Shown: piece after piece, positions 13,063 through 48,969 of the stretch
Layout of the letters: each line of letters begins with the position of its first letter
Position numbering within the stretch: the stretch's first letter is position 1
IMG/VR virus record: IMGVR_UViG_3300025697_000003
Strand: one strand, 5' to 3'
DNA from: a virus
DNA length: 64,000 nucleotides
Position numbers and translations under genes: made by a program
The notes under the pieces: generated by a model
Databases searched by the model: none
What the model was told of the DNA's origin: nothing
The model's input: the letters and a program-made list of their open reading frames with translations, nothing else

Positions 13063-13119
13063 AGGAAATCAAATCAACTCCTCAGTGCTCAACGACACAG
13101 AGAGGAAAAGGAGGAAATT

Positions 13120-13494
13120 ATGGCTCTAGCAAGTTTGACGATGCCGACCTCTGTTACAGTATCTGAGGCAGAGTCAACCGGGACTAGCTCAGGAGTGGCC
13201 GCATCTACGGCGTCTTCTTCGGCGTCTGCAGCGATCATTGACGCATCTGAGGCTTCATCTCAGGCGTCCGTGGCGATCATTGACGCATCTGAGGCATCCT
13301 CGTTGGCATCATCGGCAGCGGCTGACGCATCTGATGCGAAGTCGACGGGTCTTGTTGACAGCTCGGCTGCTTCGGTTACGAAGTCGTTGGCGGTCTACAG
13401 CGATCCGGGCTCTGATGAGTATCCGGTCAAAGAGATTGTCATGAATGCTACACTAGATACCGTCGTTACTTACGATGATTCATCTATCGCGTAG
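13120..13494 (+). CDS. Ser/Ala-rich fibre-like protein
   Basis: AAAGGAGG upstream. 124 aa, with about 70 residues of S/A/D low complexity. A perfect 23-nt direct repeat GCGATCATTGACGCATCTGAGGC occurs at 13231 and 13273. Confidence 0.6.
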   Translation: MALASLTMPTSVTVSEAESTGTSSGVAASTASSSASAAIIDASEASSQASVAIIDASEASSLASSAAADASDAKSTGLVDSSAASVTKSLAVYSDPGSDEYPVKEIVMNATLDTVVTYDDSSIA

Positions 13495-13503
13495 CGTAAT
13501 CCA

Positions 13504-13525
13504 GGGGCGGTCTTCGGGCCGTCCC
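13504..13525 (+). terminator. Stem-loop with cUUCGg tetraloop (weak terminator or RNA stabiliser)
   Basis: GGGGCGGTC-TTCG-GGCCGTCCC gives a 9 bp stem including 2 G-U pairs. Only a weak T tract follows. Confidence 0.4.
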
Positions 13526-13543
13526 TACTTCTAAGGAGAGAAC

Positions 13544-14596
13544 ATGAAAATTGCACACTGGAGCAGTTTTGCACCGAGTCGCTCTGGGCTCTACGAGGCC
13601 GCGAAAGACCTCGTTCTAGCTGAGAGGGCGGCGGGTATTGACGCACTGTTCATGAATATGAGCATAGAGGATATCGAGCAGCACAAGGCGAAGTGTCCAG
13701 GAGGCAGGATTGACGAGGCGAATCTTAATCCGAGTGATTGGGAAGCGGCAAAGGATGCGAAGATCTGGGTCATTCATCGTGGCATCCCTGCATCGATGCT
13801 CGAGGAGTCTAAGAAGCACTATTTGATCATGGCGATCCACGGTGCTCCAGAACACATGATGATGCACGACATCGAGAACAGCGGTAACGTACAGAGCTTC
13901 AATTCGCACATCAACATGGTGAACAATTACGATCGGTCGGTAGCGTTGAATGAGCACGACTACAGGATATGGCAGATGTATGCACCTCCAGAGAAGCTAG
14001 TCCACATTGACGACTCGATTGACGTCACTCGCTTCTCTCCAGATGGATATGCGTGGGAGTTCACAGGCGAGCCATCGATCCTTCATGCTGACGTATCACG
14101 AAATATCAAGCTGCCGTTCACGCTGTTCTGGGCGATGGGGAAGATCTACGAGAGCATCCCAGAGGCAAGGCTTCAGATGTATGGACTGCCGTTTGCTGAG
14201 ATCAACACATTCAGAAACATGATGGTCAGGGCACAGAACATTCATCTGTTGGGTACGTTGGAATCTGTGCAGATGATCACATCTGATCTTCGACCGATGA
14301 TGAGAGGGTCTGACATTGGAGTCAACCCGAATCTCAGTGGAGTACGCTCGCGTGTAACGATGGAGATGATGGCGTGTGGGCTCCCTGTAGTTGGTGCTGG
14401 CGAAGGCTACCCGATTCGAAGGTATCGCACCTACGACACGCATGGGCTTGCAGAGACGATCCTAGAGGCGTGGGAAGAGATTCAGAAGGATCCTACGGCA
14501 GCGCGTGAGCAAGCTCGAGCGTATGCAGTAGAACACTTTGACGTTAAGAACGCTGTAGAGACTGGATGGATCCCACTCTACGAGGAGGTAGGGTAA
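13544..14596 (+). CDS. GT-B fold glycosyltransferase (GT4-like)
   Basis: 350 aa. The C-terminal motif RVTMEMMACGLPVVGAGEG is typical of group-1 glycosyltransferases. AAGGAG upstream. Confidence 0.75.
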   Translation: MKIAHWSSFAPSRSGLYEAAKDLVLAERAAGIDALFMNMSIEDIEQHKAKCPGGRIDEANLNPSDWEAAKDAKIWVIHRGIPASMLEESKKHYLIMAIHGAPEHMMMHDIENSGNVQSFNSHINMVNNYDRSVALNEHDYRIWQMYAPPEKLVHIDDSIDVTRFSPDGYAWEFTGEPSILHADVSRNIKLPFTLFWAMGKIYESIPEARLQMYGLPFAEINTFRNMMVRAQNIHLLGTLESVQMITSDLRPMMRGSDIGVNPNLSGVRSRVTMEMMACGLPVVGAGEGYPIRRYRTYDTHGLAETILEAWEEIQKDPTAAREQARAYAVEHFDVKNAVETGWIPLYEEVG

Positions 14597-28767: not shown

Positions 28768-29679
28768 ATGCCAGCAAAAGGCACGACACGGCGAGAACCG
28801 TGGAACCCAATACTCAAATCATATCCATTCAGTGAACGAGTAAATGCTGTCTCTGTTGGCGCAGAAACCCTGTTCACACGTCTGGTCGCTCAGGCAGACG
28901 ATTATGGCAACTACTACGGCAGTCCAGTCAAGATTCTTGCATACCTATATGGTCATCGCTTTGCTGCGGGGCACGTTACCGCTACGGATACGGGCCGTTG
29001 GCGTACCGAACTCGTATCGAACAAGGTCGGACCACTCATTTGCATGTACTCGATTCAGGGTGAAGAGTACCTCCATTTGATCAATCCGAGGAGAAGGATT
29101 CGCAAGGATGTTGCCCCCGATATTAGGTTTCCTAGAGAACCAGCAAACATAGAAGAGAAGGCTATTCTAGAACAACGTATCGAAAACGGGCCGGGGACGG
29201 GCCGTGGACGGTGCGCTAGACTAGACCTAGACCTAGACAAGACCCAGACTAGACTAGACCCAGAAAAACTATTGGTCGAAAAAGATTCGACCGATCTATT
29301 CGAAATCTTCTGGAAAGAATTCCTAACCATGAAACGCAATGACGGGAAGATAGCAGCAAGAAAAGCATGGATCACTACCACCGTGAATGGACGAACTGGG
29401 AAAGTGAATGGACACAAGCCGATTGATCCATCTGTGATCTTAAATGCGGCAAAGAATTATCGGGAATTCTGCATTGCCGAAGGGACAGCACCGAACATGA
29501 TCAAACTTCCTGCTACGTTCGTTGGGCCTGATCGCCACTGGGAAGACTGGAAGAACCATCGAAAGCCATCGAGCAACGGTAGCGGCGGCAATAGCGGCAA
29601 GCGACTGATAGACACAGGTGGATACCGTCACGGCAAAGAGGATTTTCTGAGGACAAATGATAGCAAGGAGGAATCATGA
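28768..29679 (+). CDS. Replication initiator / replisome organiser-like protein
   Basis: 303 aa. C-terminal FEIFWKEF....GKIAARKAW motif is typical of DnaD/phage initiator C-domains. Directly upstream of the DnaC-like loader. Contains an internal repeat array. Confidence 0.55.
   Translation: MPAKGTTRREPWNPILKSYPFSERVNAVSVGAETLFTRLVAQADDYGNYYGSPVKILAYLYGHRFAAGHVTATDTGRWRTELVSNKVGPLICMYSIQGEEYLHLINPRRRIRKDVAPDIRFPREPANIEEKAILEQRIENGPGTGRGRCARLDLDLDKTQTRLDPEKLLVEKDSTDLFEIFWKEFLTMKRNDGKIAARKAWITTTVNGRTGKVNGHKPIDPSVILNAAKNYREFCIAEGTAPNMIKLPATFVGPDRHWEDWKNHRKPSSNGSGGNSGKRLIDTGGYRHGKEDFLRTNDSKEES
29216..29264. repeat. Array of TAGAC pentamers (iteron-like), candidate origin
   Basis: CTAGACTAGACCTAGACCTAGACAAGACCCAGACTAGACTAGACCCAGA holds 6 perfect copies plus 3 variants at 5-6 nt spacing. 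Followed by an A/T-rich stretch and the inverted repeat GGTCGAA-aaaga-TTCGACC. Confidence 0.5.
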
Positions 29680-30341
29680 TCAGCGGGACAACCATTGGAG
29701 ACAGATATGCGGCAACAAGTTTTGACACATTCGAGGCTACGAATCAATCTGGCAACAAGGCGCTTGAAGCGTGTAAGAGATTGGCAAGCGGCAAATCAGA
29801 TGGTGTCATCCTGTGCGGACCTGTTGGCACTGGAAAGACGCACCTGCTGATCTCAACAGTGAAAGAGTTCAATCGGCTGCGGACTTACATCCCTGCTGAA
29901 GAGAGCGGACCTGAAATTGAAGTGCCTCCGATTGCAGACTTGATGGCTGGACAGTATGGAGAAGTCGATAGATCTGCACCGTACTTGACGCGAGCAGAGA
30001 TATCCGTTGTCGCCAAGGTCCACTACTGGATGATCTTGGATCTTGCCAAGGCGTTGAGGGACGATGCGCTTGACAGCCACGGAACGATGACAGAAGAGTG
30101 CATGACGTGCCATCTGTTGGTCATCGACGATCTTGGGAGAGAGAAGGAATCCGAGTTCCTTCGACAAGAGATCGAGAGGGTCATCGACTTTAGATATCGC
30201 CAGATGTTGCCGACAGCAATCGCTACGAATCACAAACTTGATGAACTGTATGACGTGTACGGCGAACACATGATGTCGAGGCTGCAGCAATCGTGCGAGA
30301 TCGTTGAAGTTCTTGGGAATGACTATCGCAGGAAGAGTTGA
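29676..30341 (+). CDS. DnaC/IstB-like AAA+ helicase loader
   Basis: Walker A GPVGTGKTHLL and Walker B LLVIDDLG. ATGA overlap with the initiator gene. Confidence 0.85.
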   Translation: MISGTTIGDRYAATSFDTFEATNQSGNKALEACKRLASGKSDGVILCGPVGTGKTHLLISTVKEFNRLRTYIPAEESGPEIEVPPIADLMAGQYGEVDRSAPYLTRAEISVVAKVHYWMILDLAKALRDDALDSHGTMTEECMTCHLLVIDDLGREKESEFLRQEIERVIDFRYRQMLPTAIATNHKLDELYDVYGEHMMSRLQQSCEIVEVLGNDYRRKS

Positions 30342-35471: not shown

Positions 35472-35876
35472 TTACCCAGACACTTGGTTCTCTGGATGCT
35501 GTTTGTTCCACTTCGCAACCTTTTTTCGCTGAACATCCCAAGCATTCAATGCCGACATCAATGCCTCACTAAGCGATTCAGTGTCATACACAGTCATCGC
35601 ATCTGTGACGATCGCCGCCATCCTCGCTGGGATGTATATCGTTGTACGTTGCGGGATGCCGCGGGGTATTGGAAGTGAAATGCCAAGTGCAGCATCGAGC
35701 TTCGCTTGTGTGCCTTTGTGCGGCGGGGCACTATGTCGCCCCTTCTCAAGGCTGGAGATCACGCACGGCTTGATACCTGCCAATCGCCCAGCATCTTCAA
35801 GCGACAATCCCATCTTTAGACGCGCATCCAAAATCATCTTGCCGACTGCCTTCTTGTCCCATGTCATCGCGGTCAT
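35472..35876 (-). CDS. XRE-family HTH transcriptional regulator (repressor candidate)
   Basis: Contains KMILDARLKMGLSLEDAGRLAGIKPCVISSLEKG. AGGAGG lies 6 nt upstream. Confidence 0.75.
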   Translation of the reverse strand: MTAMTWDKKAVGKMILDARLKMGLSLEDAGRLAGIKPCVISSLEKGRHSAPPHKGTQAKLDAALGISLPIPRGIPQRTTIYIPARMAAIVTDAMTVYDTESLSEALMSALNAWDVQRKKVAKWNKQHPENQVSG

Positions 35877-35910
35877 TTGTGTCCTCCTAAAACACCGTAT
35901 CTGTCTACGT

Positions 35911-35951
35911 TATCGCCTGTTTCGCTGTAGTATTTTCGTTCTATCGCCTGT
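35911..35951. promoter_or_regulatory. Two direct TATCGCCTGT boxes (operator candidates) in the repressor leader
   Basis: Copies at 35911-35920 and 35942-35951, spaced 31 nt. A minus-strand TATAAT at 35958-35963 lies just upstream. Confidence 0.4.
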
Positions 35952-35983
35952 ATACTAATTATATGCCTCAAGCGCAGACTACA

Positions 35984-36124
35984 TCAACGTTTGAGGTAGG
36001 TATGATCCTTGACAAGTGAACGAGTAATTGGCCGTCGGCGTCTTGCGAGACGAAGTATGAAGACGCCGACTCCTGCAACGATATATGGCGCGGTTATCGC
36101 CGCCATGATGCCGAGGACGTTCAT
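35984..36124 (-). CDS. Small membrane protein (46 aa)
   Basis: ATGA overlap with the upstream HNH gene stop. Translation starts MNVLGIMAAITAPYIVAGVGVFILRLARRRR. Confidence 0.4.
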   Translation of the reverse strand: MNVLGIMAAITAPYIVAGVGVFILRLARRRRPITRSLVKDHTYLKR

Positions 36125-36909
36125 TCGTATATACCTCCCTTGGCTAGATTCTCTTCCGCCCATAGAGGCTGTAGGTTTGTGTAGTGACACGCCTGCAAGA
36201 ACTGTTCCCTATCTGTCAAGTCGAACGATGCAAGCGGCTTGATGTGGTCGATGTGCCATCCGTAGAAAGACCAGTTATCCCACGTCATACCTGGACGGAA
36301 TAGCGCCTCAAGATGTGCCTTGAGTTCATTGATTGTGCAGCCGAGGTCTCGGACGGCGCTGCCTGTTTTGAAGTTTCTGTCGAGAGCACGGCGCAAACGT
36401 TCTCGTAGATTATGTCCCAATTTGCCTTGAATTGTATTCCTGAAATACTTCTGATATGCCACACAATAAGCCTTGTACTCAGGTGAATTGCGATATGATT
36501 TCTGCTTCGTCTTCCTTTCTGGCGCATCGAAGTAGTCCTTCATATAGGCTTTCTGCCATGCTTTGTACTTTGGACTCGATTCACGGATCTTCTTCTTAGC
36601 CTTTGCCTCTTTAGTATTTCGATATGCTTTCCGTTTTGCCTTTTGATCTGGAGAATTGCAGAACTCTTTCATATATGTCTTCCATTCTGGCGTCTGCCGT
36701 CGCGCTTTCTGCTTGGCCTCGTATTCTGGTGTTTGACATCGCGCCTTCGCCTCAGCTTTTCGTTTAGCCGCATATTCTTTGTCGCAAACACATGCAACAG
36801 TTGTCTTACAGCATCCAGCCTCTCTTGCTATCGCTGCATACGTCCACCCATCAGCCTTCAACTCACGCATCCTAGATTTCTCTTCCTCAGTTACGCGGTT
36901 AGACATCAA
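36121..36909 (-). CDS. HTH / Lys-Tyr repeat / HNH endonuclease fusion protein
   Basis: N-terminal GWTYAAIAREAGCCKTTV. Central repeats (K..Y..SPEYKA). C-terminal WHIDHIKP...CHYTNLQPLWAEENLAKG. Confidence 0.7.
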   Translation of the reverse strand: MMSNRVTEEEKSRMRELKADGWTYAAIAREAGCCKTTVACVCDKEYAAKRKAEAKARCQTPEYEAKQKARRQTPEWKTYMKEFCNSPDQKAKRKAYRNTKEAKAKKKIRESSPKYKAWQKAYMKDYFDAPERKTKQKSYRNSPEYKAYCVAYQKYFRNTIQGKLGHNLRERLRRALDRNFKTGSAVRDLGCTINELKAHLEALFRPGMTWDNWSFYGWHIDHIKPLASFDLTDREQFLQACHYTNLQPLWAEENLAKGGIYE

Positions 36910-36915
36910 CCCTCC

Positions 36916-37506
36916 TTAAAGCGCAACGGTCTGATGGACGATTTCGATATCGTCGTCATTCAGCCCGAGGTACAACATGGTCTCTCGTTGGTTCGAGTGA
37001 TTGAATGCCGCCTGTACTACTGCCAACTGCTGATCGAACGTAACGACAGCGTGATAACCGAAAGTCTTTCGCAGTGAATGGGCAGCGATAGGATCCTGAA
37101 TTCCCACACGCTTCGCCTCAATCCCCATCTGCCGCGAAAGGTGCTCGCGGCTGTAGACTTCTCGCGTGATTGGATTCCTGAATATCGCCTCATCTCGCTC
37201 GGGGATACGCCCGAGGCTATCCAAGAGGAACCGGAGAGATTCGACAACATTCTCGTTGATGAATATCCGCCGTGGCTTATTCGTCTTCTTCTCAATGAGC
37301 GTGAGGTGGTCACGCATCGTGGTCGTACCATCAAGCCACACTGAGCTCCACGTCAATCCCCGGAGATCGGATACGCGCAGGTTGGTATTGCAGCCAGTGA
37401 CGAAGAAGCAATACATCGCCGCTGTCTTCTCCGTCTTCAAGTTTCGCCTAATTCGCTGGATATGGTCTATTCGCCTAATCGGGTGTACACGGATCATCTT
37501 AATCAC
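36916..37506 (-). CDS. int: Minimal tyrosine recombinase (catalytic domain only, 196 aa)
   Basis: Candidate catalytic residues: R in LRVSDL, HSLRKTF (HxxR), FNHS and TMLYLG (Tyr). No N-terminal core-binding or arm-binding domain. Confidence 0.8.
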   Translation of the reverse strand: MIKMIRVHPIRRIDHIQRIRRNLKTEKTAAMYCFFVTGCNTNLRVSDLRGLTWSSVWLDGTTTMRDHLTLIEKKTNKPRRIFINENVVESLRFLLDSLGRIPERDEAIFRNPITREVYSREHLSRQMGIEAKRVGIQDPIAAHSLRKTFGYHAVVTFDQQLAVVQAAFNHSNQRETMLYLGLNDDDIEIVHQTVAL

Positions 37507-37521
37507 CTCGATTGCATCATA

Positions 37522-37788
37522 CTACTGGGAGAGCGATATATCAAACTTCATCTTAGCTATCGCCTCGGTTGGCAAGTCTGGCAGGTCGGCCTTCACAAAT
37601 AAGCCGATTGCTCCCTCTTCGGCATACCAAAAATGACCATCTCCAACGATAACGAATGAGTTGTTCCCGGTGAGAGAAACCTTTACAAGTGACCGCCTTG
37701 GTTTCTCTTCTATCTCTCCAAATTTCCATCCATAGAACCACCATTCACCTACCTCGTCAGGCCATTCTATTCGCCATTCGTAGATCAT
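37522..37788 (-). CDS. Hypothetical protein
   Basis: AGGAGG lies before ATG 37788 (MIYEWRIEW...). 88 aa. Confidence 0.5.
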   Translation of the reverse strand: MIYEWRIEWPDEVGEWWFYGWKFGEIEEKPRRSLVKVSLTGNNSFVIVGDGHFWYAEEGAIGLFVKADLPDLPTEAIAKMKFDISLSQ

Positions 37789-37990
37789 CTGCGCCTCCTG
37801 ATTCCGCCGTTTCAAGCACGTGCTCAAGGATCGCCTGCTGCGTCGCTGTCGGCTGTGTGAGGTACATGCTGTCTCGCTCGATCGCGTATTCGCCTCTTCC
37901 TGCGTGATGGTATACCTGATTCCCGCCGATTGTCAGCGGTGCGCCTGCGATTACGACCTTCTTGTATCCTGGTGCTGGTTCAAATGGCAT
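37757..37990 (-). CDS. Hypothetical protein
   Basis: GAAGGAGG upstream. 77 aa. Confidence 0.5.
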   Translation of the reverse strand: MPFEPAPGYKKVVIAGAPLTIGGNQVYHHAGRGEYAIERDSMYLTQPTATQQAILEHVLETAESGGADDLRMANRMA

Positions 37991-38219
37991 TCGCCGCCTC
38001 CTTCAAATTCGCCTTTTCTCGCCCAGTATCGGGCCTGCCTTCATGCCTCTCCTGATGTCGCAGATGATCGCCTACTTTGTCGCGCTTTGACTCGCTAGGC
38101 TCCCACGCTGGCCGGTTCATGCTGGAATAGCACGACAAACACGGTTCGCAGTCGCCTGACGTGTCGAAGTGCTGGCAGTCGCGGCAATTATTCGCCGTCC
38201 TTCGCTTGATTCCTTTCAC
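37980..38219 (-). CDS. Cys-rich small protein
   Basis: GTG start 6 nt after GGAGG. Contains CRDCQHF..GDCEPCLSC. Confidence 0.45.
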   Translation of the reverse strand: MKGIKRRTANNCRDCQHFDTSGDCEPCLSCYSSMNRPAWEPSESKRDKVGDHLRHQERHEGRPDTGREKANLKEAANAI

Positions 38220-38235
38220 CTTGCACCTCCAGAAA

Positions 38236-38298
38236 TTCGCCTATTTTCGCCTATTTTCGGCAGTGCCTGGGGTCGCCCCGGTCCGCCCGGGACGACCC
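38236..38298. promoter_or_regulatory. Tandem TTCGCCTATT 10-mers plus GC-rich hairpin in intergenic region
   Basis: TTCGCCTATT at 38236 and 38246, with a partial third copy. An imperfect GGGGTCG...CGACCC hairpin spans 38269-38298. Confidence 0.4.
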
Positions 38299-38308
38299 GC
38301 GCCCCCTC

Positions 38309-38803
38309 TCAGTCGATCGATTTCATGAATTCGCGCAACGCTTCGACTTCGTTGATGATTTCCGCGCCGCCGTCTTCCCATTCTGTCGCCTCGACTCGCT
38401 GCATGAATTCTAGGGCGCTTGTAAGCGCGGCCACCATCGACGGGTAAGCGTTGAGCGCCTTCATGATCTGGACGAAGGGCGCGACATCGTGCGGGTCGTC
38501 TCCGCCGTCGTGAGATACAAGAGAGCAAAGAAGGCTTTCCGGCTGTTCTTTCGTCGTGTCCCATACATGGACGCCACGCGCTCCGCTGTCTTCCGTCCAG
38601 GTGGACCCAAATCTGTATCTCGGTGCGGGAACTTGCTTTGCTTGTTCTTCTGGTACGCCCGCCCACTGCAGTAGTTGAACGTCTCCCGGTTCGATATGGT
38701 CAGACAGGTTTTGTAGTTCCACGAGATCGCCATAGCTAATCCGCTCTGCTTCGATCTCGCCGCGCAGGTATTCCAGCCGGTCTTTCGTTGCTTGATCTGT
38801 CAT
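38309..38803 (-). CDS. Hypothetical acidic protein
   Basis: Start chosen at MTDQATKD. 164 aa. Confidence 0.5.
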   Translation of the reverse strand: MTDQATKDRLEYLRGEIEAERISYGDLVELQNLSDHIEPGDVQLLQWAGVPEEQAKQVPAPRYRFGSTWTEDSGARGVHVWDTTKEQPESLLCSLVSHDGGDDPHDVAPFVQIMKALNAYPSMVAALTSALEFMQRVEATEWEDGGAEIINEVEALREFMKSID

Positions 38804-38862
38804 GATTCCACGTCCTTTCCCTGGGACCGCCCGCACGGACGGCCCCGACTGGGAGGTGATAC

Positions 38863-39279
38863 TTATTCTCCGAAGTAGTGCATCTGGCAGTATGAAAGAA
38901 CCGCGTCGCGTTGTTCGCTTGATATATCAAACCATTCCGTCCACGGTGTGCCCCAGTCCTGGAACTGAACCAGCGCCGAGGTCGGTTGGCAGTATTCGTT
39001 AAGATCTCCGATGATTCGCACCGCAGGCCCCCCCGTGCATAGCAGTATGCAGAATTCGTCCGGCTTGTCTTCCGTCCCCGGTGCATACCATGAGCGCCGA
39101 ACTTCAACGCTTAATGCGTTTTCTTGGATCCGTTCCCGCATTCCGTCTTCGTCGTATTCGTACCCTTCGAGCAATACCTCGCCGGATTCCCGCGCCGTCT
39201 CAAGTGCCGCCATTAGCTCGACAATGCTTTCAACTTGTGCCCGTGCCTGGTCCTTCGCTTGTGCTGTGTCCGTTGTCAT
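38863..39279 (-). CDS. Hypothetical acidic protein
   Basis: Start chosen at MTTDTAQ, 9 nt after GGGAG. 138 aa. Confidence 0.5.
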   Translation of the reverse strand: MTTDTAQAKDQARAQVESIVELMAALETARESGEVLLEGYEYDEDGMRERIQENALSVEVRRSWYAPGTEDKPDEFCILLCTGGPAVRIIGDLNEYCQPTSALVQFQDWGTPWTEWFDISSEQRDAVLSYCQMHYFGE

Positions 39280-39359
39280 TCTCATCATCTCCCGTGATGT
39301 TTTTACCGCTTGCCGCCCGCGAGGGAATTCAACCCCCGCGAGCGGGTGAGGTGGTACGC

Positions 39360-40487
39360 TTATACATTCACCGGCATAACTACCCACGATTGAAGCACGC
39401 GCCCCGGGACTGTATCTGGAGAGCTTGAGAACGTCCCCGCCTGCAGTCGCCCCCCGAGAGATACGCGCACTGTTTCAGATTTCCCGAACTTTAGAACGTC
39501 CTCGAGTAGCGAACCGTTAAAGCTCACCGGCTCACCGTCCGCGCTTGGTGAATCGTCAAGCCTTACATTTTCGCTATAGCTCCCGAGGTCACGGCAACCG
39601 CTGGACATCTGCAGAACACTAGAACCGCCTACAGTGGCAAGCGTTACCGCTAAGGAATCACGAAAGGCGACAATGAGCCCGCGCCTTACCGCCGATAGCA
39701 AGGCTTTTCTATTCACTGTGAACTCTACCGCGCACGCTTTGGGAATTACGCGCTCAAAATCCGGGAACTCCTCAGGGATACCCCGCAACTGATAGCAAGC
39801 AGACGCGAAAGAGACCACAAGCCGCTCATAATCCCCGTGGATAATTTCAAGCCGCACGCTTTCCGAGGACTTAACAAGCGTTGCAATCCTGGCCAGTTCT
39901 GCAGCATTGACTAGGACGGCCCCTTCTTCGTTGCAATCCGTAGCGAACTCCTCAAGCAGTAGACGGAAACCGTCTGTAGAGGCGAACTTGACGCGCCCCT
40001 CGCTATATATCACGTTGACACCTGCAAGCTCTGGACGATTCCCGGTTTTTGAGCTCGCCGCCTTGAGTCGCTTTGTTAGCCCCTTGAACACGTCGCCGGC
40101 GAATACTCCGAGTGTGAAGCTCGGAGCCGCGCCCGGTGTATCTGGGTAGTCCTCAATGGTCAGAGTCGGAATGACCGCGCCCCCGATTGTCAGAGTACCG
40201 GCCTCAGTTGATAGAACAACCTCACCGGCTGGAAGTTTCCCGGTTATCTTTGCCAGTATCGACGCGGACACAATAACGGAATCCGGCCCCTCGTCTTTAT
40301 AGGTCAAGCAGTCAGGGGACGAATAACCCCACGTTTGCAGATTCGTTGCGGACAACTGCAACTCCCCGGGTAGTGCGTCAATACGAACCGTCTGCAGGAT
40401 AGGCATTCTTGAGGACTTACCCCCCGCAACCTTTCCCGCTTGCTTAACTGCTTGCTGCAGCTCTTTTGCTTCAATGATGGCCTGCAT
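39360..40487 (-). CDS. dnaN: DNA polymerase III beta sliding clamp
   Basis: 375 aa from MQAIIEAKELQ. Contains ASTDGFRLL, EFPDFERVIP, SFNGSLLEDVL and C-terminal VVMPVNV. Confidence 0.88.
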   Translation of the reverse strand: MQAIIEAKELQQAVKQAGKVAGGKSSRMPILQTVRIDALPGELQLSATNLQTWGYSSPDCLTYKDEGPDSVIVSASILAKITGKLPAGEVVLSTEAGTLTIGGAVIPTLTIEDYPDTPGAAPSFTLGVFAGDVFKGLTKRLKAASSKTGNRPELAGVNVIYSEGRVKFASTDGFRLLLEEFATDCNEEGAVLVNAAELARIATLVKSSESVRLEIIHGDYERLVVSFASACYQLRGIPEEFPDFERVIPKACAVEFTVNRKALLSAVRRGLIVAFRDSLAVTLATVGGSSVLQMSSGCRDLGSYSENVRLDDSPSADGEPVSFNGSLLEDVLKFGKSETVRVSLGGRLQAGTFSSSPDTVPGRVLQSWVVMPVNV

Positions 40488-40489
40488 GG

Positions 40490-40882
40490 TTACACCGCCC
40501 CGATTGTTTCCGCGTATCGTTCGGTTTCCTGATCGTGGTTGTGACAAATCCCCGCAATCATTGCACCCTCTGAGCCGCGCACGTGCAAACGGATGTAGCA
40601 GCACTGAGCCCCCCGCGCTTGATTGTCAAACGACTTGTCTAAGCCCTTACCGCTTACCTCGTTCCTGGACAACCCCAGCCGCGTGACGTTGTTCTCACCG
40701 TCAATCAACGTCTGGAGATTCGATAGGACGGCATCGATAAACTCCGGGTTCCCGTCAATCCGCACCCCGCACGCGCCATACGTCGAACCCTTGGCCTTAT
40801 ACGGCAATGGCGCCATATACTGTAGGGGATCCTGACCGGGTGAGAGTTCCTTCCATGTTTGCAGTGCTTCCTTCTTTAGCAT
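40490..40882 (-). CDS. Hypothetical protein
   Basis: GAGGTGA lies 6 nt upstream. 130 aa. Confidence 0.55.
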   Translation of the reverse strand: MLKKEALQTWKELSPGQDPLQYMAPLPYKAKGSTYGACGVRIDGNPEFIDAVLSNLQTLIDGENNVTRLGLSRNEVSGKGLDKSFDNQARGAQCCYIRLHVRGSEGAMIAGICHNHDQETERYAETIGAV

Positions 40883-40897
40883 CTCGTATCACCTCAA

Positions 40898-41182
40898 TCA
40901 GATATTACCTATAAATGGCGACAGTCTCAATACCCTTGCCCCGTCGCTATGTCTCGCCGTATAATGGTCGTATGTCACGCTTATCCCTTTCACGCAGCAC
41001 GAAGAAGAATAACGCCGAAAACGCAGCAGGGCTGCAAAGGACAGCACCCCATCTAACACGGAAGCCTGGGGTGCCAAAGGAGTGTCTTTCGACGGGTCCT
41101 TGCTGCTCAGCCCTGTCATTTCCCCGTGACGCGAGCAGTCGTCTTCCAGGGCCACACTTTGCTGGATACGGAGAGTTCGCAT
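40898..41182 (-). CDS. Possible 94-aa CDS (ambiguous region)
   Basis: GAGGGAG lies 5 nt before ATG 41182, and the stop is 15 nt before the next gene. The product is low-complexity and an equally long + strand ORF overlaps it. Confidence 0.3.
   Translation of the reverse strand: MRTLRIQQSVALEDDCSRHGEMTGLSSKDPSKDTPLAPQASVLDGVLSFAALLRFRRYSSSCCVKGISVTYDHYTARHSDGARVLRLSPFIGNI
40902..40930 (-). promoter_or_regulatory. Candidate sigma70-like promoter (minus strand)
   Basis: Minus-strand TTGAGA-17 nt-TAATAT, upstream of the SD of gene 40490..40882. Confidence 0.4.
40936..40965 (+). promoter_or_regulatory. Candidate sigma70-like promoter (plus strand)
   Basis: TTGCCC-18 nt-TATAAT, facing the Thr-protease gene about 390 nt downstream. 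Confidence 0.4.
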
Positions 41183-41356
41183 GGTCGCTCCCTCATCCGT
41201 CCCTCGACCTTGACCGCGGCTTGGACCATCAAGTACGGTTATCGGCATGGGTAGGGTTCATGTGTTGCAGCACTACGCTGATCAAGACAATCACCCCCTT
41301 TGTAGTCCACGCGGGACTACCACACAGAATAGGCGAGAACTGATGGAAGAGTCAAT

Positions 41357-42244
41357 ATGAGGGATGACAATCCTCTAACAATGGCAGACCTCCCATCATT
41401 CCCGATAGAACGGGAGAGATACGGCCCTTTGTACGCTTTCTGGGACGGGGTTGCGCCAATGTACATGGAAGAGGTGTATACTCTTCCCAATATGACTCTA
41501 TGTGTCGCAGTTGCAGCAAAAGACGGTGTTGTTTTGGGTACAGATACACAGGAAACACGATCGGATGGATCCAAACGCAATGGCGTCAGCAAGATTGTAG
41601 AAGTTAGCGACACGATGGCCGTAGGGCTTTCTGGAACTGGGAATGTTGCCAAGGGTATTCTAGGACACCATGGCCTATTGGAACATGCGCGAAGTCTGAA
41701 AGACGCAGACCAGATCGGAGACTTCTTCGGCAGTTGCTTCCTGGGAAGCGTCCAAGGGCACTCGCATAGGCCAGACTTTTATAGGGAAACATATGACTTG
41801 AAAAACGGTGCGGTTGATCCGAAAGTTCTAGATCTGCGACTACTGCTTGCATCCTTCGACGGGGAAGCATCTATTGGAGAGGTATCTCCTCAGACTGGCT
41901 ATTCATTTGCCCCGATGCAGAGAGCGCATTGCATAGGAGTAAATGCCTTTGCAAACGCCCTCCTTCCAACGCTTGCCCCAATTGGGAAGCCTTTGCCAAC
42001 AGTTGCCGAAGCAGAGATAATTGTGGCGTTATGCCTGATGGTTACAGCAGATCGCTTTTATGGTGTCGGCGAGCCATTTGACATTGTGAGGATTACAAAG
42101 GGAAAGATAGAGCGATATAGCACCGCAGAGAAACCACAAGTGTTGAAATCGGCTAGGAAGTTGTGCAAAGCATGGAAAGAAATGTTCAGGATCATCTCTG
42201 AAGAAGCGTCTAGCAACTCTGAAGAACTAAATCCATCAACTTAG
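41357..42244 (+). CDS. Proteasome beta-subunit / HslV-like Ntn threonine protease with 46-aa propeptide
   Basis: Reads ...NM|TLCVAVAAKDGVVLGTDTQETRSDGSKRNGVSKIVEV. Counting from T47 gives Thr1, Asp17 and Lys33. Followed by AVGLSGTGNVA. Confidence 0.7.
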   Translation: MRDDNPLTMADLPSFPIERERYGPLYAFWDGVAPMYMEEVYTLPNMTLCVAVAAKDGVVLGTDTQETRSDGSKRNGVSKIVEVSDTMAVGLSGTGNVAKGILGHHGLLEHARSLKDADQIGDFFGSCFLGSVQGHSHRPDFYRETYDLKNGAVDPKVLDLRLLLASFDGEASIGEVSPQTGYSFAPMQRAHCIGVNAFANALLPTLAPIGKPLPTVAEAEIIVALCLMVTADRFYGVGEPFDIVRITKGKIERYSTAEKPQVLKSARKLCKAWKEMFRIISEEASSNSEELNPST

Positions 42245-42500
42245 CCCTTTCATCCCTGTGCGAGCATCTAAACGCGAACTCATCCAGATATTCCTGTAGA
42301 TGGATGGCCGATACATGATGGTAGACACCGACGAGTCCTCGCTTGAAAAGCGACCACGCATTCTCCACATGGTTCACGTGCACACCATTCTCTGAGTAGT
42401 GGAGCCAATGATTGACAGTACGATGTAGCCCGAACTTGGACAGGATCTTGAACCGCCGCGCTTGGTCTGTGTAGATCGTCTTGACATAACCAAGGTTCAT
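42210..42500 (-). pseudogene. IS1595-family (ISXO2-like) transposase C-terminal fragment
   Basis: 96 aa: TDQARRF...HRTVNH....GVHVNHVENAWSLFKRGLVGVYHHVSAIHLQEYLDEFAFRCSHR. The N-terminal zinc ribbon and DDE portion are absent. Confidence 0.7.
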
Positions 42501-42689
42501 GGTACATACGCGGTTGATCTCAGCGTGAGTGAGCCTATCAATGCGTGTGTCCTAAGTGCAAAAACCCTTATTGGGATAGACCTAGACGCGATTCACAGAA
42601 GAAGAACTAACACACACAAGGTAGGTGCGCTCTTGAATTCACAAGGCCTAATTCCGTACTCTGCTGCATCAAAGGGATAAGGGGGTCGT

Positions 42690-43397
42690 ATGTCCTCAAA
42701 TGGTACAACCAAGAAAAGGGTAACAGATTACGATTGGCCCGCTTTGCTCGCTGAATTCCTTACCCAGCCTACGATGTCTATTCAAGATTTCGCAGAGTTC
42801 AAGGGTGTACCGTTCTCCACTGTCAAGAATCACAGCGATAAGAAAGGCGATTGGATAACCAAGCGTAATCAGCATTACAGAGAGATCCACCAACTCACTT
42901 TCGATCGTATCGCAGGCATCATTGCCGAAACTCGTGCAGATGACATCTCATCTTTCAGAGCACTAGAAGAACGCCTGCAGGCCGTTGTCCTCAAATCGCT
43001 TGAATTGCTATTCCCGCCAGAAGATGCACCGCTTGAGGCCGTTCTAGCAGCAACCGCACGACTCGAGGAAATGTCAGCGGACAAACTAAGCACGATCATA
43101 AACACCGGCATGAGAACGCTAACCGAGACAGGCAGGCATCGACGTCTATTATCTGGACAAGCAACCGCCATTTTCTCGCGTGCTGAATTGCCCGATATTG
43201 AGCTTCCTATCCCGCTGGAAGAAGCTAAAATGTTGGAATTACGCAGCAGATTAGCACAACAAGCCCTCAACGCTATCGACAACGGGCAACCGCTTGACGT
43301 GGAGTACACCGTGGCAGAATCGCCTGAGATCGCCGGAGATCCTGACCCCGTGGCCAGTTCCGCCGGTTCGCCTGGAGTTCGCCGCCACAAAGAATAG
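42690..43397 (+). CDS. HTH protein, terminase-small-subunit-like architecture
   Basis: Contains MSIQDFAEFKGVPFSTVKNHSDKKGDWITKR, then a long helical region and an acidic/Pro tail. GGGGG-type SD. Not adjacent to terL. Confidence 0.45.
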   Translation: MSSNGTTKKRVTDYDWPALLAEFLTQPTMSIQDFAEFKGVPFSTVKNHSDKKGDWITKRNQHYREIHQLTFDRIAGIIAETRADDISSFRALEERLQAVVLKSLELLFPPEDAPLEAVLAATARLEEMSADKLSTIINTGMRTLTETGRHRRLLSGQATAIFSRAELPDIELPIPLEEAKMLELRSRLAQQALNAIDNGQPLDVEYTVAESPEIAGDPDPVASSAGSPGVRRHKE

Positions 43398-43399
43398 CC

Positions 43400-43428
43400 G
43401 TGTATACGTTACTGGATAAGGTATACAC
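43400..43428. other. Hairpin between convergent genes
   Basis: GTGTATAC-13 nt-GTATACAC, an 8-bp stem. Contains two copies of the enriched GTATAC core. Confidence 0.4.
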
Positions 43429-43442
43429 TCGATTTCGCCAAC

Positions 43443-43781
43443 TCACTCATAGCCAAGCTCGCGGTACAGTATCGCCCTGAGGTAGGCGGCTTTCGTTAGT
43501 TCGCCCTCCTGTATTCGCTTGGATAGCAAGTCTTCAACTATTGGGCACACTCGGAACGTGAGAAGGACAGAGTTCGCCTTATCGCTATCCTGTAGGGGTA
43601 TACATGCCGGTTCGCCCTTGTGTATACGTGTAGGGGTGGCCGGTTCGCCTGTTTCAACCCGTGAAACGATCTGTGACGCTTGCGCCATTCTCTCTTTCTT
43701 CAAGCAAGCAGTACACTTGCCGTATTGCTTCTCTACTGTAGACAGGATGGGAGCTTGACATACCTTGCAACGTGTAGCCAT
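43443..43781 (-). CDS. Zinc-ribbon + ribbon-helix-helix-like DNA-binding protein
   Basis: N-terminal CKVC...CTAC. C-terminal LLTFRVCPIVEDLLSKRIQEGELTKAAYLRAILYREL has an RHH-like pattern. Confidence 0.55.
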   Translation of the reverse strand: MATRCKVCQAPILSTVEKQYGKCTACLKKERMAQASQIVSRVETGEPATPTRIHKGEPACIPLQDSDKANSVLLTFRVCPIVEDLLSKRIQEGELTKAAYLRAILYRELGYE

Positions 43782-43832
43782 ACTTCACCAACTCCATTGT
43801 ATACGTGATGGCATCGAGTATACAGTGCGATA

Positions 43833-43869
43833 GCCAAAGAGAAAAGGGCGTCCAGTGCTGCAGACGCCC
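43833..43869 (-). terminator. Intrinsic terminator (minus strand)
   Basis: GGGCGTC-10 nt-GACGCCC stem, followed on the minus strand by CTTTTCTCTTTGG. Confidence 0.6.
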
Positions 43870-43883
43870 CTGATCTCCCCTCA

Positions 43884-44027
43884 CTAGCAAGCGTAGGGAT
43901 TCTCCTCACTGAACACGATGAACATAGCTTTGGGGTCAATGCCGTCATACTCGCACGCCTTGAGCCAACGCTCTCGATAGGATAGAAGCACGATCTCTAC
44001 GGGTCCGTCTGTCATTGTCTTAGGCAT
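43884..44027 (-). CDS. Small protein (47 aa)
   Basis: GAGGAGG lies 6 nt before the ATG. Translation is MPKTMTDGPVEIVLLSYRERWLKACEYDGIDPKAMFIVFSEENPYAC. Below the track cutoff. Confidence 0.5.
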   Translation of the reverse strand: MPKTMTDGPVEIVLLSYRERWLKACEYDGIDPKAMFIVFSEENPYAC

Positions 44028-44196
44028 TGTCTTCCTCCTCGTTGTTGTTGCCCTGCAGCCTGGCCAGTACCACAGCCAGGCTAGCGCGTTGCGTCGCTGT
44101 CATAGCTTCGACGTGTACTTGGTTGTTCACGATGTGAAGCACCTTCCTAGCGTGATTGATCGCTCGCCGTTTAATGCTTCTGCGATGTGCTCCCAT
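44020..44196 (-). CDS. Possible small basic protein
   Basis: Starts MGAHRRSIKRRAINHARKVLHIV.... No SD. Overlaps 44127..44363 by 70 nt in another frame. Confidence 0.35.
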   Translation of the reverse strand: MGAHRRSIKRRAINHARKVLHIVNNQVHVEAMTATQRASLAVVLARLQGNNNEEEDNA

Positions 44197-44363
44197 GTTG
44201 AATGGGTGCAGAAGGATCCAGTTCCATTTAATGCAGGGGGACTGAGCTCCTCGCCAAATATAGAATAGCGTTGAACTCTGGCACATATAATCTGGCCATC
44301 GCCTAGGCAGTTGACTGTCTTTGCTTCTTCCCTTGCTCGTCGTGCTGTCCACTTCTGAGTCAT
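44127..44363 (-). CDS. Hypothetical protein, first gene of the minus operon
   Basis: GAGGTG lies 6 nt before ATG 44363 (MTQKWTARRAREEAK...). Confidence 0.4.
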   Translation of the reverse strand: MTQKWTARRAREEAKTVNCLGDGQIICARVQRYSIFGEELSPPALNGTGSFCTHSTWEHIAEALNGERSITLGRCFTS

Positions 44364-44478
44364 ATCCATCACCTCACTGTTAGATGTACCATCATAGCGA
44401 ATCCCTATAGGGTAATACTAGGGAACAGTGTCACCTTTCTATCTGGACACGTGTCACTTAATGGGCAGTGTGTGACAT

Positions 44479-44615
44479 GGATGAGCGGATGAGCCTAGGC
44501 GACACGGATGAGCCGAGCCGAGCATGCCGAGCATGTCACACAATCAAACGGATGAGCGGATGAGCGACACGGATGAGCGCATGCCGAGCGCATGCCGGCA
44601 CCGGGATCGATGAGC
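44479..44615. repeat. GGATGAGC box array (6 perfect + 1 partial) in two ~71-nt super-repeats
   Basis: Boxes at 44479, 44487, 44506, 44550, 44558 and 44571, plus a partial at 44609. Each half reads GGATGAGCGGATGAGC..GACACGGATGAGC followed by GCATGCCGAGC repeats. Confidence 0.85.
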
Positions 44616-44669
44616 TGTTCGGATCCCGTATGGCCCCGATTGCACGACCAACGGGAGAGGGGGGAGGTT

Positions 44670-44741
44670 GCTCAAGATTTTCTGGTAATAATTTGAAAAG
44701 GGCATGCTCAAGATTTTCTGCTCCCAGTTTCAAAAGTGCCA
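44670..44741. repeat. Two tandem 36-nt repeats
   Basis: GCTCAAGATTTTCTG at 44670 and 44706, each followed by TTT(G/C)AAAAG. Followed by a G8 run (44782-44789) and a T-rich UP-like tract. Confidence 0.8.
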
Positions 44742-44822
44742 ATTCGAAACATCTTTTAATCCTAGCTGGATTTCTTTTGGAGGGGGGGGTGCCATTTTTT
44801 ATTTCTGAAATTTCCAGCGAAC

Positions 44823-44851
44823 TTGCATCACCTGAGAGTTTCTAGTAGGAT
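44823..44851 (+). promoter_or_regulatory. Promoter, TTGCATCACCT family
   Basis: TTGCAT-17 nt (CACCTGAGAGTTTCTAG)-TAGGAT. Confidence 0.55.
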
Positions 44852-44857
44852 AGGTGC

Positions 44858-45004
44858 ATGGCCAAGAAGGAAGTGCGGACAGACGGAGATGAAGACACAG
44901 GCAGGTATTGTCCATGCAGCAGGATCCCTAAGAGCTGGTGGGTGAAGTTAAGGTACAGGCCACGAGATGTGAGGATGAAGAACTGTCGGACTGACGATGA
45001 TTGA
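44858..45004 (+). CDS. Possible small basic protein (48 aa)
   Basis: ATG lies 7 nt after the -10 hexamer, so it may be leaderless. Translation starts MAKKEVRTDGDEDTGRYCPCSRIPKSWWVKLRY.... Confidence 0.3.
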   Translation: MAKKEVRTDGDEDTGRYCPCSRIPKSWWVKLRYRPRDVRMKNCRTDDD

Positions 45005-45017
45005 TAGGAGAATGAAG

Positions 45018-45542
45018 ATGAAAGTAGAGATTCTGCGTGAAGCTGGATTTGAAGAAGCACTGCTGGGGATATCTCTGAGCTACAACAGTGGTGGAGATAT
45101 GAAAGTGGTTGCTGACAAGCTGGTAAAGAGAGGCGGGAGTCATTCGAAGTTTCTCGAGAGCATTGCAGTGTGGCTGGATATCGAAGCTCCTCGATATTGG
45201 TGGCAGCAATTTGCTACATATCGTATTGGGACATCTGCTCAATCAGAATCTACGATGCACACGCTGCTTGATGGAGAGCTCACTGAAGATAACTTCTCGT
45301 GTGAGGTACATGATGTGTATCTTGACATCATCAACGCAGTGATCAAGGCAGGAGATCTTGCCCATGCGAAAGGACTTCTTCCTGAGTCCTTCCTACAGCG
45401 GCGGATTGTCTGCACGAACTACATGGCGTTGAAGCGGATGATCCAGCAGCGACGGCACCACAAGCTGATAGAATGGCAGATATTCTGTACTCAAGTTGTG
45501 ATACAGGCAGAGCATCCAGAGTTTCTTGAGGTGGCGAAATGA
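45018..45542 (+). CDS. ThyX-fold protein with degenerate ThyX signature
   Basis: Aligns by eye to ThyX (HS.FLESI.V.L.IEAP....QQF...RI; LP......R.....N...L..MI..R). The RHRxxSxxxxSxRY motif is replaced by TYRIGTSAQSESTM. Confidence 0.6.
   Translation: MKVEILREAGFEEALLGISLSYNSGGDMKVVADKLVKRGGSHSKFLESIAVWLDIEAPRYWWQQFATYRIGTSAQSESTMHTLLDGELTEDNFSCEVHDVYLDIINAVIKAGDLAHAKGLLPESFLQRRIVCTNYMALKRMIQQRRHHKLIEWQIFCTQVVIQAEHPEFLEVAK

Positions 45543-48769: not shown

Positions 48770-48969
<200 letters not shown>

Follow-up and report, generated by a model that had tools for sequence, protein, structure and literature searches.

The element described here is the non-coding gap from which two transcription units diverge in the virus record IMGVR_UViG_3300025697_000003, of which one stretch of 64,000 nucleotides was analysed (hereafter the window, to which coordinates refer unless another contig is named). 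The window is part of a siphovirus-like phage of about 69 kb that is known from metagenomes only; contigs carrying its proteins reach 69,540 bp, and its GpA-type large terminase is only about 22% identical to that of the nearest isolated phage. Plus-strand genes run from 44858 round to 35238 as a rightward operon of about 59 kb, and a 9-kb leftward module dominated by the minus strand occupies 35472-44372, the point of divergence being the gap at 44373-44857. An earlier note on this DNA had singled out 44400-44822 as a repeat-dense intergenic region and proposed that it is a multi-protein binding platform, serving as a genetic switch between the two operons, a second origin, a partition site or a terminase recognition site. 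We find an element of a recognisable kind, whose unusual trait is a conserved frame around a repeat cassette of fast turnover, and which also holds an invariant and unexplained 16-mer.

Extent of the gap and its counterparts in related phages

The region is non-coding, as the note had it, but its limits had to be redrawn: the gap proper spans 485 bp, and an uncalled minus-strand gene for a product of about 78 amino acids (aa) has its start at 44363. Gene callers predicted nothing within the gap on any contig, among them five independent ones (ENA and JGI samples) that match the window at 100% identity over 44000-44900, in line with the statement that no credible coding sequence lies there. Two mechanical open reading frames (ORFs; 44573-44845 on the plus strand and 44536-44742 on the minus strand) have no family matches and are disrupted by the exchange of the cassette in relatives, and no tRNA was found in the gap.

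Searches of 50,697 phage records with megablast and blastn gave no relevant DNA match to the window or to this region. The gaps of relatives were reached through homologues of a 235-aa protein encoded at 42690-43397, and from there through their contigs, together with a scan for the invariant 16-mer. The homologues form 26 clusters that are 39-94% identical to the window protein. Contigs with an equivalent divergent gap are, by identity of the 235-aa protein, L271/L282 (94%), L273 (73%), L274/L276/L283 (62%), L277 and L278 (55%), L285 (50%), L280/L284 (48%) and L287 (46%); the comparison covers eight lineages, the window and seven related ones with a 235-aa neighbour 46-94% identical. Other routes were unproductive. 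An exact search of viral contigs with the 16-nt sequence GGATGAGCGGATGAGC returned 15 matches, none related to the window by blastn, and a gapped pattern of three boxes, searched in metagenome and genome collections, returned among the matches listed unrelated sequences, mostly coding repeats, and none homologous to the window. In the contigs reached through the ThyX-like gene (L016-L018) this gene directly follows the replication genes, hence there is no equivalent gap; those reached through a 112-aa gene (43443-43781) are just 1-1.7 kb long and end before the gap. A literature search with the box sequence matched primers only.

The putative rightward promoter and the nearly invariant 16-mer

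At the right end of the gap lies a putative promoter, P_R (TTGCATCACCTGAGAG...TAGGAT, 44823-44851, plus strand), with TTGCAT as -35 hexamer at 44823-44828, a 17-nt spacer and TAGGAT as -10 hexamer at 44846-44851. A simple consensus scan had missed it; the TTGCAT-17-TAGGAT arrangement fits a sigma-70-type promoter as judged by its hexamers and a permitted spacing of 16-18 bp. The TTGCAT promoter proposed in the note is considerably strengthened by recurrence, since the combination of its 11-mer, spacer and -10 is repeated along the early genes, with three copies in the window (44823, 46430, 48343), and is found in every relative. Allowing at most one mismatch, the 11-mer matches seven times against 1.4 expected, a number that none of 100 shuffles reached. 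Relatives carry one to four copies per genome, always on the plus strand and with a Shine-Dalgarno sequence (SD) and an ATG downstream, which follow each copy of the P_R type at 6-30 nt. The consensus of the class is TTGCAYCAC-N2-3-GAG-N-TAnnAT, preceded by an A/T-rich, UP-like unit and a G-run. The first rightward ORF (44858-45004, plus strand, 48 aa) has an 88%-identical, 50-aa counterpart in L271. Its ATG stands 6 nt after the -10, a geometry shared with L282 and L274/L276 (44846-44860 in the window, 9735-9749 in L274), so that the first rightward mRNA is probably leaderless; the other promoter copies have normal SD leaders.

In its TTGCAT, 17-nt spacer, TAnnAT and A/T-rich tract directly before the -35, P_R resembles sigma-70 promoters with UP elements. 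It differs from them in the conservation of the spacer (CAC-N2-3-GAG), in the G-run at about -75 and in the 16-mer at about -100, which together suggest that additional factors act at promoters of this type.

The sequence upstream of P_R is modular. Two tandem 36-nt units (44669-44739, plus strand), which look like UP-like promoter-upstream modules, had been noticed before; their common 16-mer TGCTCAAGATTTTCTG stands at 44669 and 44705, 36 nt apart, the units are 80% identical over 35 nt, and no third copy of the 16-mer exists in the window even at three mismatches. Relatives have a single A/T-rich unit, CTCAAGATTTTCTrCTCyCArTTTsAAA, which ends in ...TTTsAAAmgs and abuts TTGCAYCAC. Unit 1 resembles the version of L273 and unit 2 that of L271, and both align to the single unit of L282. 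Because the unit of the relatives abuts the -35 and neither window copy does, the two copies look like duplicated modules that have lost their core promoters. The remainder, 44771-44822, consists of the tail TTTCTTTTGG, a G8 run (44782-44789) and a T-rich tract. Homology to L282 resumes at 44771, just past a 457-bp insert of L282 in whose place the window has 35 bp; the insert holds a promoter, a 55-aa gene, a tRNA-Arg and a terminator, which the L282 copy of the unit appears to drive. By this alignment TTTCTTTTGG would be the remnant of a terminator kept in L282, and the G8 run with the T-rich tract the predicted upstream module of P_R; the UP-like character that the note had seen in the T-rich tract fits its place in a conserved promoter-upstream module. 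The suggestion that the G8 run varies in length found no support, as it is constant across the five identical contigs (assemblies hide minority variants) and L282 has GGGGTGGGGGG instead. The early region of L282 encodes tRNA-Arg(TCT) at 1959-2031 and tRNA-Glu(TTC) at 3432-3504, and the window encodes no tRNA at all.

Further upstream lies the best-conserved non-coding element, block D (GGATCCCGTATGGCCC, 44621-44636, plus strand), a nearly invariant 16-mer (GGATCCCGTWTGGCCC; family consensus rGATyCCkTwTGGCCC). It is single-copy in each genome and invariably found in this gap and on this strand, with a variant, TAGATTCCTTTTACCCC, in L285; a second copy that could delimit an invertible or excisable segment was not found within three mismatches. 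An imperfect hairpin (CCCGT...ACGGG) and a first G-run, the G6 run at 44659-44664 that adds to the G8 run, extend over 44625-44667 on the plus strand. All relatives have a G-run about 25 nt past the 16-mer. We detected no RNA covariation around the 16-mer (consensus energy -3.6 kcal/mol, covariation term +0.25). By eye, we tried to read the 16-mer and the CGAAC arrays (described below) as sigma-54 or LexA/Cheo-box sites, and gave this up for a misfit of spacing or symmetry.

The putative leftward promoter and operator and the candidate regulator

On the opposite strand, the putative promoter P_L has the -10 hexamer TATGAT at 44391-44396, a poor -35 and a start predicted near 44384. It faces three small leftward genes (43884-44363), which encode about 78 aa (44127-44363), about 40 aa (44020-44142) and 47 aa (43884-44027) and are closed by a terminator-like hairpin with a T-tract (43844-43871, minus strand; 11-pair stem with six GC pairs, then TTCTCTTT). 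The SD of the first gene, GAGGTG, lies at 44370-44375, and TATGAT, TACAAT, TAGGAT or TAGAAT occupies the equivalent position before a GAGGTG SD in L274, L271, L278 and L280. The lineages keep the start codon and SD of the first leftward gene, with a -10-like hexamer 15-25 nt upstream. A perfect 10-bp palindrome, CCCTATAGGG (44403-44412), lies within the P_L spacer; it has an equivalent, CCCTTACAGGG, in L271, whereas more distant relatives did not show it. The 40-aa product matches L277 and, at 63% identity, the product of a called 42-aa gene of L271. The product of about 78 aa has a weak homologue in L025; a word-based search returned no homologue, and an exhaustive search only four weak matches to repeats in long proteins. 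Homology between the window and L271 breaks exactly after the shared ATG of the first gene (44361-44363; 4291-4293 in L271): the gene body has been swapped (about 78 aa in the window, 54 aa in L271) and the start codon, SD and promoter have been retained.

Between P_L and the box repeats stands a 24-bp palindrome, GTCACTTAAT-GGGC-AGTGTGTGAC (44453-44476), present in all eight lineages with the consensus GTCACWNWAT-N4-ATWNWGTGAC, which we take as an operator, O_A. Its centre is held at -79.5 to -81.5 from the predicted P_L start in the window, L274, L278 and L280. The half-site B, GTCACACAAT (44535-44544, plus strand), makes up, together with the right O_A arm, a perfect inverted repeat of 11 bp (TGTGTGACATG and CATGTCACACA, 44469-44479 and 44532-44542) that brackets the first box cluster and corresponds to the TGTCAC/GTGACA repeats of the note; GTGTCAC also occurs at 44428 and 44451. 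Counterparts of half-site B could be aligned in L273, L274, L277 and L280 and were seen in L285 and L287. A half-site C (consensus GAGTGAC) is degenerate in the window, where GAGCGACA at 44562-44569 falls inside the second box cluster; its distance from the right O_A arm is 92-93 bp in the window as well as in L273 and L277. The three top scores of a half-site weight matrix in the 64 kb all fall here (O_A and site B); as these sites had served to train the matrix, the result says no more than that the rest of the window lacks an equally good one. Additional good matches to GTCACWNWAT half-sites occur in intergenic gaps of relatives other than this one (L274 7497-7624, L280 1856-1973, L273 8005-8014). 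They lie near a gene of the 235-aa type or the regulator gene and are possible secondary operators; the window has no comparable score.

The likely partner of these sites is an XRE-type protein encoded at 35472-35876 (minus strand) and found in five lineages at 37-91% identity. O_A is a dyad-symmetric site conserved among relatives that share this regulator, and because a conserved recognition helix matches a conserved operator we infer that the XRE-type protein binds the GTCAC sites. The protein also has a conserved C-terminus, TTIYIPAR...SLSEALMSAL, with a strand-helix-helix pattern, and may combine two DNA-binding modules. Taking the gap by itself, we are confident that it is a transcription control region.

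Repeats of the gap and turnover of the cassette

Every repeat that had been listed for the region is real, in place or displaced by 1-2 nt. Six perfect copies of the box GGATGAGC start at 44479, 44487 and 44506 (cluster I, 44479-44513, plus strand) and at 44550, 44558 and 44571 (cluster II, 44550-44578, plus strand), and a partial, degenerate box, CGATGAGC, lies at 44608-44615. The cluster starts are 71 nt apart, in agreement with the super-repeat of about this length seen earlier, and the duplicated 71-nt unit reads box, box, (CTAGGC), GACAC, box ... GCATGCCGAGC, with small indels between the copies. Short repeats follow both clusters on the plus strand: (C)GAGC and GCATGCCGAGC at 44514-44532, then GCATGCCGAGC, GAGCGCATGCC and the degenerate box at 44579-44615; the two copies of GCATGCCGAGC start at 44522 and 44579 and those of GAGCGCATGCC at 44575 and 44586. 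The number of GGATGAGC copies in the whole window (seven against 3.8 expected) is unremarkable, and the signal is their clustering, six of the seven lying within 100 bp and the other at 30500. Direct 8-mer repeats cover 152 nt of the region; over all 420-bp windows the median is 32 and the 99th percentile 133, and the region ranks second overall and first among non-coding sequences; the top rank goes to a coding Gly/Ser/Tyr repeat.

All boxes fall within a hypervariable cassette (44476-44616, 141 bp) that has no homology to the close strain L282/L271. When the window is aligned to L282 by blastn, 44361-44475 (88%), 44617-44684 (80%), 44700-44735 (92%) and 44771-45022 (89%) are matched and 44476-44616 is left unaligned, L282 having 110 bp of non-repetitive DNA there. 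The cassettes of other lineages hold different repeats: CAACGACCA three times and GACGCAAGCC twice in L273, ACGAACGAACC three times in L274, CACAACCAC six times and CGACACCCGACGA twice in L277, (CGAA)n in L278, whose contig ends inside the array, and GAACGGAC three times in L285. The cassette of L280 has no repeats and that of L287 little repeat. Over 8842 bp, L277 and L278 share 99.9% identity; beyond this stretch they have different arrays and different first leftward genes, as do the window and L271. Even very close strains differ through exchange or rebuilding of the cassette, and the GGATGAGC repeats are strain-specific, relatives substituting other repeats or none. The note had held that its proposal would fall if the repeats were not conserved in related phages; for the GGATGAGC boxes this is the case, since a strain with flanks about 88% identical lacks them and others carry unrelated repeats. 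Two properties of the cassette vary less. The length from O_A to the 16-mer is held at 113-145 bp across lineages, and the top strand is poor in T in the four repeat-bearing lineages tested (6-13% against 23-25% genome-wide, p 3e-3 to 2e-8; 13% against 23% in the window) and normal in two repeat-free lineages.

These properties bear on an alternative that we consider doubtful though worth serious attention, namely that the control region stands as described and the arrays are filler, prone to slippage and duplication and with no sequence-specific partner. Selection would then act only on the length that spaces the half-sites and on a T-poor, three-letter composition; as such a composition cannot form a -10-like TAnnnT on either strand, a long untranscribed spacer would be kept free of promoters. 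Array sequences that are unrelated between lineages and absent in two, very close strains that differ in the cassette, window clusters that differ solely by indels of short units, the distribution of T depletion and the conserved half-site spacing all agree with this, as does the contig that ends within a (CGAA)n run, as would be expected of an unstable or heterogeneous repeat. Yet the six 8-mers are perfect and interspersed, unlike a simple microsatellite, and their copy number is constant in five identical contigs. The CGAAC type of motif also occurs in the otherwise different L274 and L278, more in the manner of an exchange of functional types, and the avoidance of promoters is our own rationalisation.

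A proposed divergent early control region

Our preferred interpretation is that of a divergent early control region with a repeat cassette whose boxes are bound by a strain-specific protein, a statement to which, taken whole, we give somewhat less than an even chance. Its starting point is what was observed, that is, the anatomy, its conservation, the promoter family and the turnover of the cassette; the binders, the sign of regulation and the occupancy of the boxes are conjectural. Two promoters would fire outward from the gap. P_R would start the rightward operon of about 59 kb, probably as a leaderless mRNA, and P_L, with its poor -35, would start the three-gene leftward unit that ends at the terminator at 43844-43871. 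The XRE-type regulator would bind O_A and the two half-sites; the position of the operator at -80, ahead of a promoter whose -35 is weak, fits activation or looping better than simple occlusion. The boxes, at our best guess, would be bound cooperatively by a small DNA-binding protein particular to the strain, which would tune both promoters; candidates are the 112-aa protein, through a ribbon-helix-helix (RHH)-like C-terminus, and the first leftward gene product, whose gene changes together with the cassette. We favour strain-specific binding sites because the copies are perfect, the DNA between them varying by indels, because their layout is interspersed, because they are exchanged together with the first early gene and because CGAAC recurs in unrelated backbones. 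The region is indeed a dense platform between divergent units. Among the four functions suggested in the note, a switch between the operons comes closest and the other three found no support; the boxes it stressed are not conserved; the elements that are, namely the palindrome built on TGTCAC/GTGACA, the 16-mer and the promoter modules, had been given little or no weight.

Several observations weigh against this interpretation. All promoter and operator calls rest on sequence and conservation only, and the P_L -35 is weak across lineages and unrecognisable in the window. The cassettes of two of the eight lineages (L271/L282 and L280) hold no repeats, and that of L287 only weak ones, so that the array is not required for the region to work. 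Box spacings of 8, 19, 44, 8 and 13 nt are not helically phased, and the best-conserved element, the 16-mer, is not accounted for by the model. Nor does the type of array co-vary cleanly with any one protein among the few available lineages: the RHH-like domain is common to L273 and L277, whose CA-rich arrays are alike and not identical, L271 has a related domain and no array, and L274 has CGAAC arrays and lacks the 112-aa protein. The RHH assignment itself falls below family thresholds, in a part of the structure model that is poor (predicted local distance difference test score, pLDDT, about 50).

The position of the array relative to the promoters also bears on the idea that the repeats act in RNA, as a GGAUG decoy or sponge of the CsrA/RsmA kind or as a regulatory structure. 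In its favour are six to seven GGAUG-type copies in 140 nt, with (AC)GGAUG(A) resembling the core selected by CsrA in SELEX (systematic evolution of ligands by exponential enrichment). However, the array lies upstream of both predicted promoters, it folds no more stably than shuffled sequences (z -0.03 on the plus and -1.47 on the minus strand), Rfam gave chance-level matches only, and relatives have no GGA motifs at the equivalent position. A structured or sponge RNA was discarded on structure, covariation, family search and position, and the idea is largely refuted, with hardly any credence left to it.

The arrangement recalls the switches of temperate phages such as lambda (OR with P_R/P_RM), TP901-1 and those of the 186 type with distant auxiliary operators, in its back-to-back promoters, its palindromic operator for an XRE/Cro-CI-type helix-turn-helix (HTH) protein, its extra half-sites at fixed distance, which suggest looping, and its standing, with the first genes, as a hotspot of mosaic exchange among related phages. 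Unlike those switches, it has its operator centred at about -80 and not over the promoters, its regulator gene 8.5 kb away, and a long gap (330-485 bp) with an invariant 16-mer and a hypervariable cassette. Lysogeny of this phage is only putative.

For an uncultured family, the analysis provides a first map of transcription signals, with a promoter class, an operator, a likely regulator and the predicted points at which the two early units begin. The gap is also a natural example of a fixed frame (operator spacing, 16-mer and promoters) whose interior of about 140 bp is rebuilt in strains 88-99.9% identical. If the arrays are bound by strain-specific proteins, they would be a compact means of diversifying regulatory specificity; if they are not bound, they would caution against equating striking perfect repeats in the intergenic DNA of phages with functional sites. 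In both pairs of close strains the first leftward gene was exchanged together with the array, which brings up an unlikely but more specific proposal: T-poor array and co-exchanged gene would form a strain-specific, swappable module of protein and site, set in among operator half-sites that the family conserves, and separately the 16-mer and G-run could be a family-wide cis site for packaging or for the conserved 193-aa tyrosine recombinase. Were this true, near-identical phages would have private control of their early promoters, of an immunity-like or incompatibility-like kind.

Candidate binding proteins and other possible functions of the gap

The 112-aa protein (43443-43781) has an N-terminal zinc ribbon and a C-terminus with a strand-helix-helix (beta-helix-helix) pattern. 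NikA-like, that is RHH, matches of this C-terminus remain below the 27-bit cut-off (E 0.07; 0.007 for a homologue), the match to PDB entry 2ba3 has E 0.32, and the two C-terminal helices are modelled at a pLDDT of about 50. The model was of too low confidence for a fold search, and a PDB profile search was uninformative. The type of C-terminal domain differs in L271, L273 and L277.

RHH proteins bind arrays comparable to this one. Boxes of 8 bp that adjoin each other in one orientation, their arrangement as two clusters between promoters, a small RHH-like protein nearby and an expected fast change of specificity are shared with the 8-bp metboxes of MetJ, the heptads of pSM19035 omega, ParR/parC of R1 and ParG of TP228; RHH membership below threshold, the lack of a partition NTPase, irregular spacing and arrays that are dispensable in some lineages set the present case apart. 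A centromere-like partition site that doubles as operator, coated by the RHH protein in a plasmid-like prophage, as at R1 parC, the omega sites of pSM19035 or TP228 parH, is conceivable from the two clusters of short direct repeats between promoters and from a possible RHH protein encoded 600 bp away. The sole recombinase, moreover, is small (193 aa) and could be a dimer resolvase instead of an integrase. We nevertheless regard such a site as very improbable: no ParA-, ParM- or ParB-type protein was found with Pfam or PHROGs among some 60 window ORFs scanned (about 5 kb of the genome lie outside the window), which leaves the partition-site suggestion of the note without a partition ATPase, arrays are absent in some lineages, and a distant relative of the 235-aa protein in a bacterial chromosome contig hints at integration. 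The recombinase gene (36916-37497, minus strand) encodes a tyrosine recombinase of about 193 aa that consists of the catalytic domain alone, with homologues in L273, L274, L277 and L280.

The 235-aa protein (42690-43397, plus strand) is modelled as an HTH followed by a 53-residue helix (pLDDT 71). Its N-terminal, DNA-binding HTH is variable, and its centre and C-terminus, with the motif RTLTETGRHRRLL, are invariant. Three of its eight best matches among viral predicted structures are annotated as terminase small subunits (E 2e-3 to 1.3e-2, template modelling (TM) score 0.23-0.56), and no Pfam or PHROG match was found; from these models it may be the small terminase of the phage. Its gene lies on the strand opposite to its neighbours and, if it encodes TerS, 9 kb from TerL. 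A homologue 52% identical occurs in L279 (GCA_042581305.1, a Candidatus Bipolaricaulota metagenome-assembled genome), at 5300-8528 beside phosphoglycerate kinase on a 57-kb chromosomal contig; this may point to the host or to integration, or else reflect faulty binning, and the contig has no equivalent of the control region. Three copies of a 13-mer, GCCGGTTCGCCTG, one of them at 85%, are distributed over the end of the 235-aa gene and the interior of the 112-aa gene (43362-43374, 43606-43618 and 43639-43651).

A terminase site (pac or cos), in which this protein would bind two box clusters flanking an IHF-like site and the 16-mer or G-run would be cut, was weighed on these grounds. The protein has an HTH, a variable DNA-binding end and fold matches annotated as TerS, and no other small-terminase candidate was recognised beside the GpA-type large subunit. 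The sequence AATCAAACGGATG (44542-44554), one mismatch from the consensus WATCAANNNNTTR, is what we take to be the IHF-like site. Some conserved function is needed to account for the invariant 16-mer and the G-rich tract, and the cohesive ends of P2 and lambda are known to be rich in G. Repeat clusters around an IHF-like sequence, with a small-terminase-like gene within 1.1 kb, recall the hexamers and IHF site of P1 pac and the R sites of lambda cosB. In contrast to those sites, the boxes are missing despite the same DNA-binding domain: a strain whose HTH is essentially identical (94%-identical protein) has none, so that they are not conserved with the presumed TerS. The region lies 7.6 kb upstream of the large-terminase gene and not next to it. 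Among about 15 contigs examined there was no end at the 16-mer or G-run, and several assemblies continue across the region, although metagenome contigs are weak evidence on DNA ends. The fold matches of the 235-aa protein are themselves weak, and the IHF-like site is not kept in relatives. The terminase reading is weakened for the boxes, and we hold out little prospect for it overall; the 16-mer and G-run are not touched by the comparison of boxes.

Composition bears on the second origin suggested in the note. In an iteron-type origin the octamers would bind an initiator, the adjacent GC-rich block and the A/T-rich 36-nt repeats would be the unwinding region and divergent transcription would activate it; the P4 origin uses octamer iterons. 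As in the ori and crr iterons of P4 and in lambda-type origins, direct 8-bp repeats in two clusters stand beside an A/T-rich tract: six or seven boxes precede 44669-44822 (35-44% GC), which includes the lowest-GC 100 bp of the 64 kb (44679-44778, GC 0.35) and adjoins the second-highest (44565-44664, GC 0.67). The cumulative GC skew has its minimum at the gap, a sliding-clamp gene lies in the adjoining module, and repeats that differ from lineage to lineage have the look of iterons. The skew minimum, however, coincides with the switch in gene orientation and gives no independent information, and promoter-upstream modules account for the A/T-rich repeats. Close relatives do not share the repeats: two lineages, one of them about 88% identical in the flanks, lack the arrays (L271/L282 were judged without their replication genes). 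The DnaD-like initiator and DnaC-like loader (28768-30341) are encoded 15 kb away and have repeats of their own: about seven TAGAC/CTAGAC repeats lie within the initiator gene (28768-29679) at 29216-29264, in an interdomain linker where they encode LDLDLD, followed by a low-GC stretch (29265-29364, 0.38), and a homologue in L016 has the same repeats. Two independent contigs start at about 29430. We consider 29216-29364 the better candidate, for an origin of the lambda type, and an origin in the gap improbable.

Other features of the window

The plus-strand genes downstream of P_R include a ThyX-like gene, a dCTP deaminase, many small genes and an HNH gene. They are followed on the same strand by the large terminase (52503), the portal (60295) and the tape measure (2689), and the replication and recombination genes comprise a PD-(D/E)XK nuclease, RecT, the initiator (28768) and the loader (29676). 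The 9-kb module, mostly on the minus strand, holds the XRE-type HTH protein, the tyrosine recombinase, the sliding clamp and small genes. Inside it, 41357-42500 carries an HslV/proteasome-like protease gene (plus strand) and a 96-aa fragment of an IS1595-type transposase, which do not occur in L271 or in the relative designated B; this suggests a recent insertion. Among the tail genes, 10823-14596 encodes a DegT/DnrJ/EryC1 aminotransferase (E 1e-120), a GFO/IDH/MocA oxidoreductase and a group 1 glycosyltransferase. A long GGCTCC/GGCTAC tandem repeat at 48796-48966, with 81% GC the maximum of the window, encodes the Gly-Ser/Gly-Tyr low-complexity tail of an ORF.

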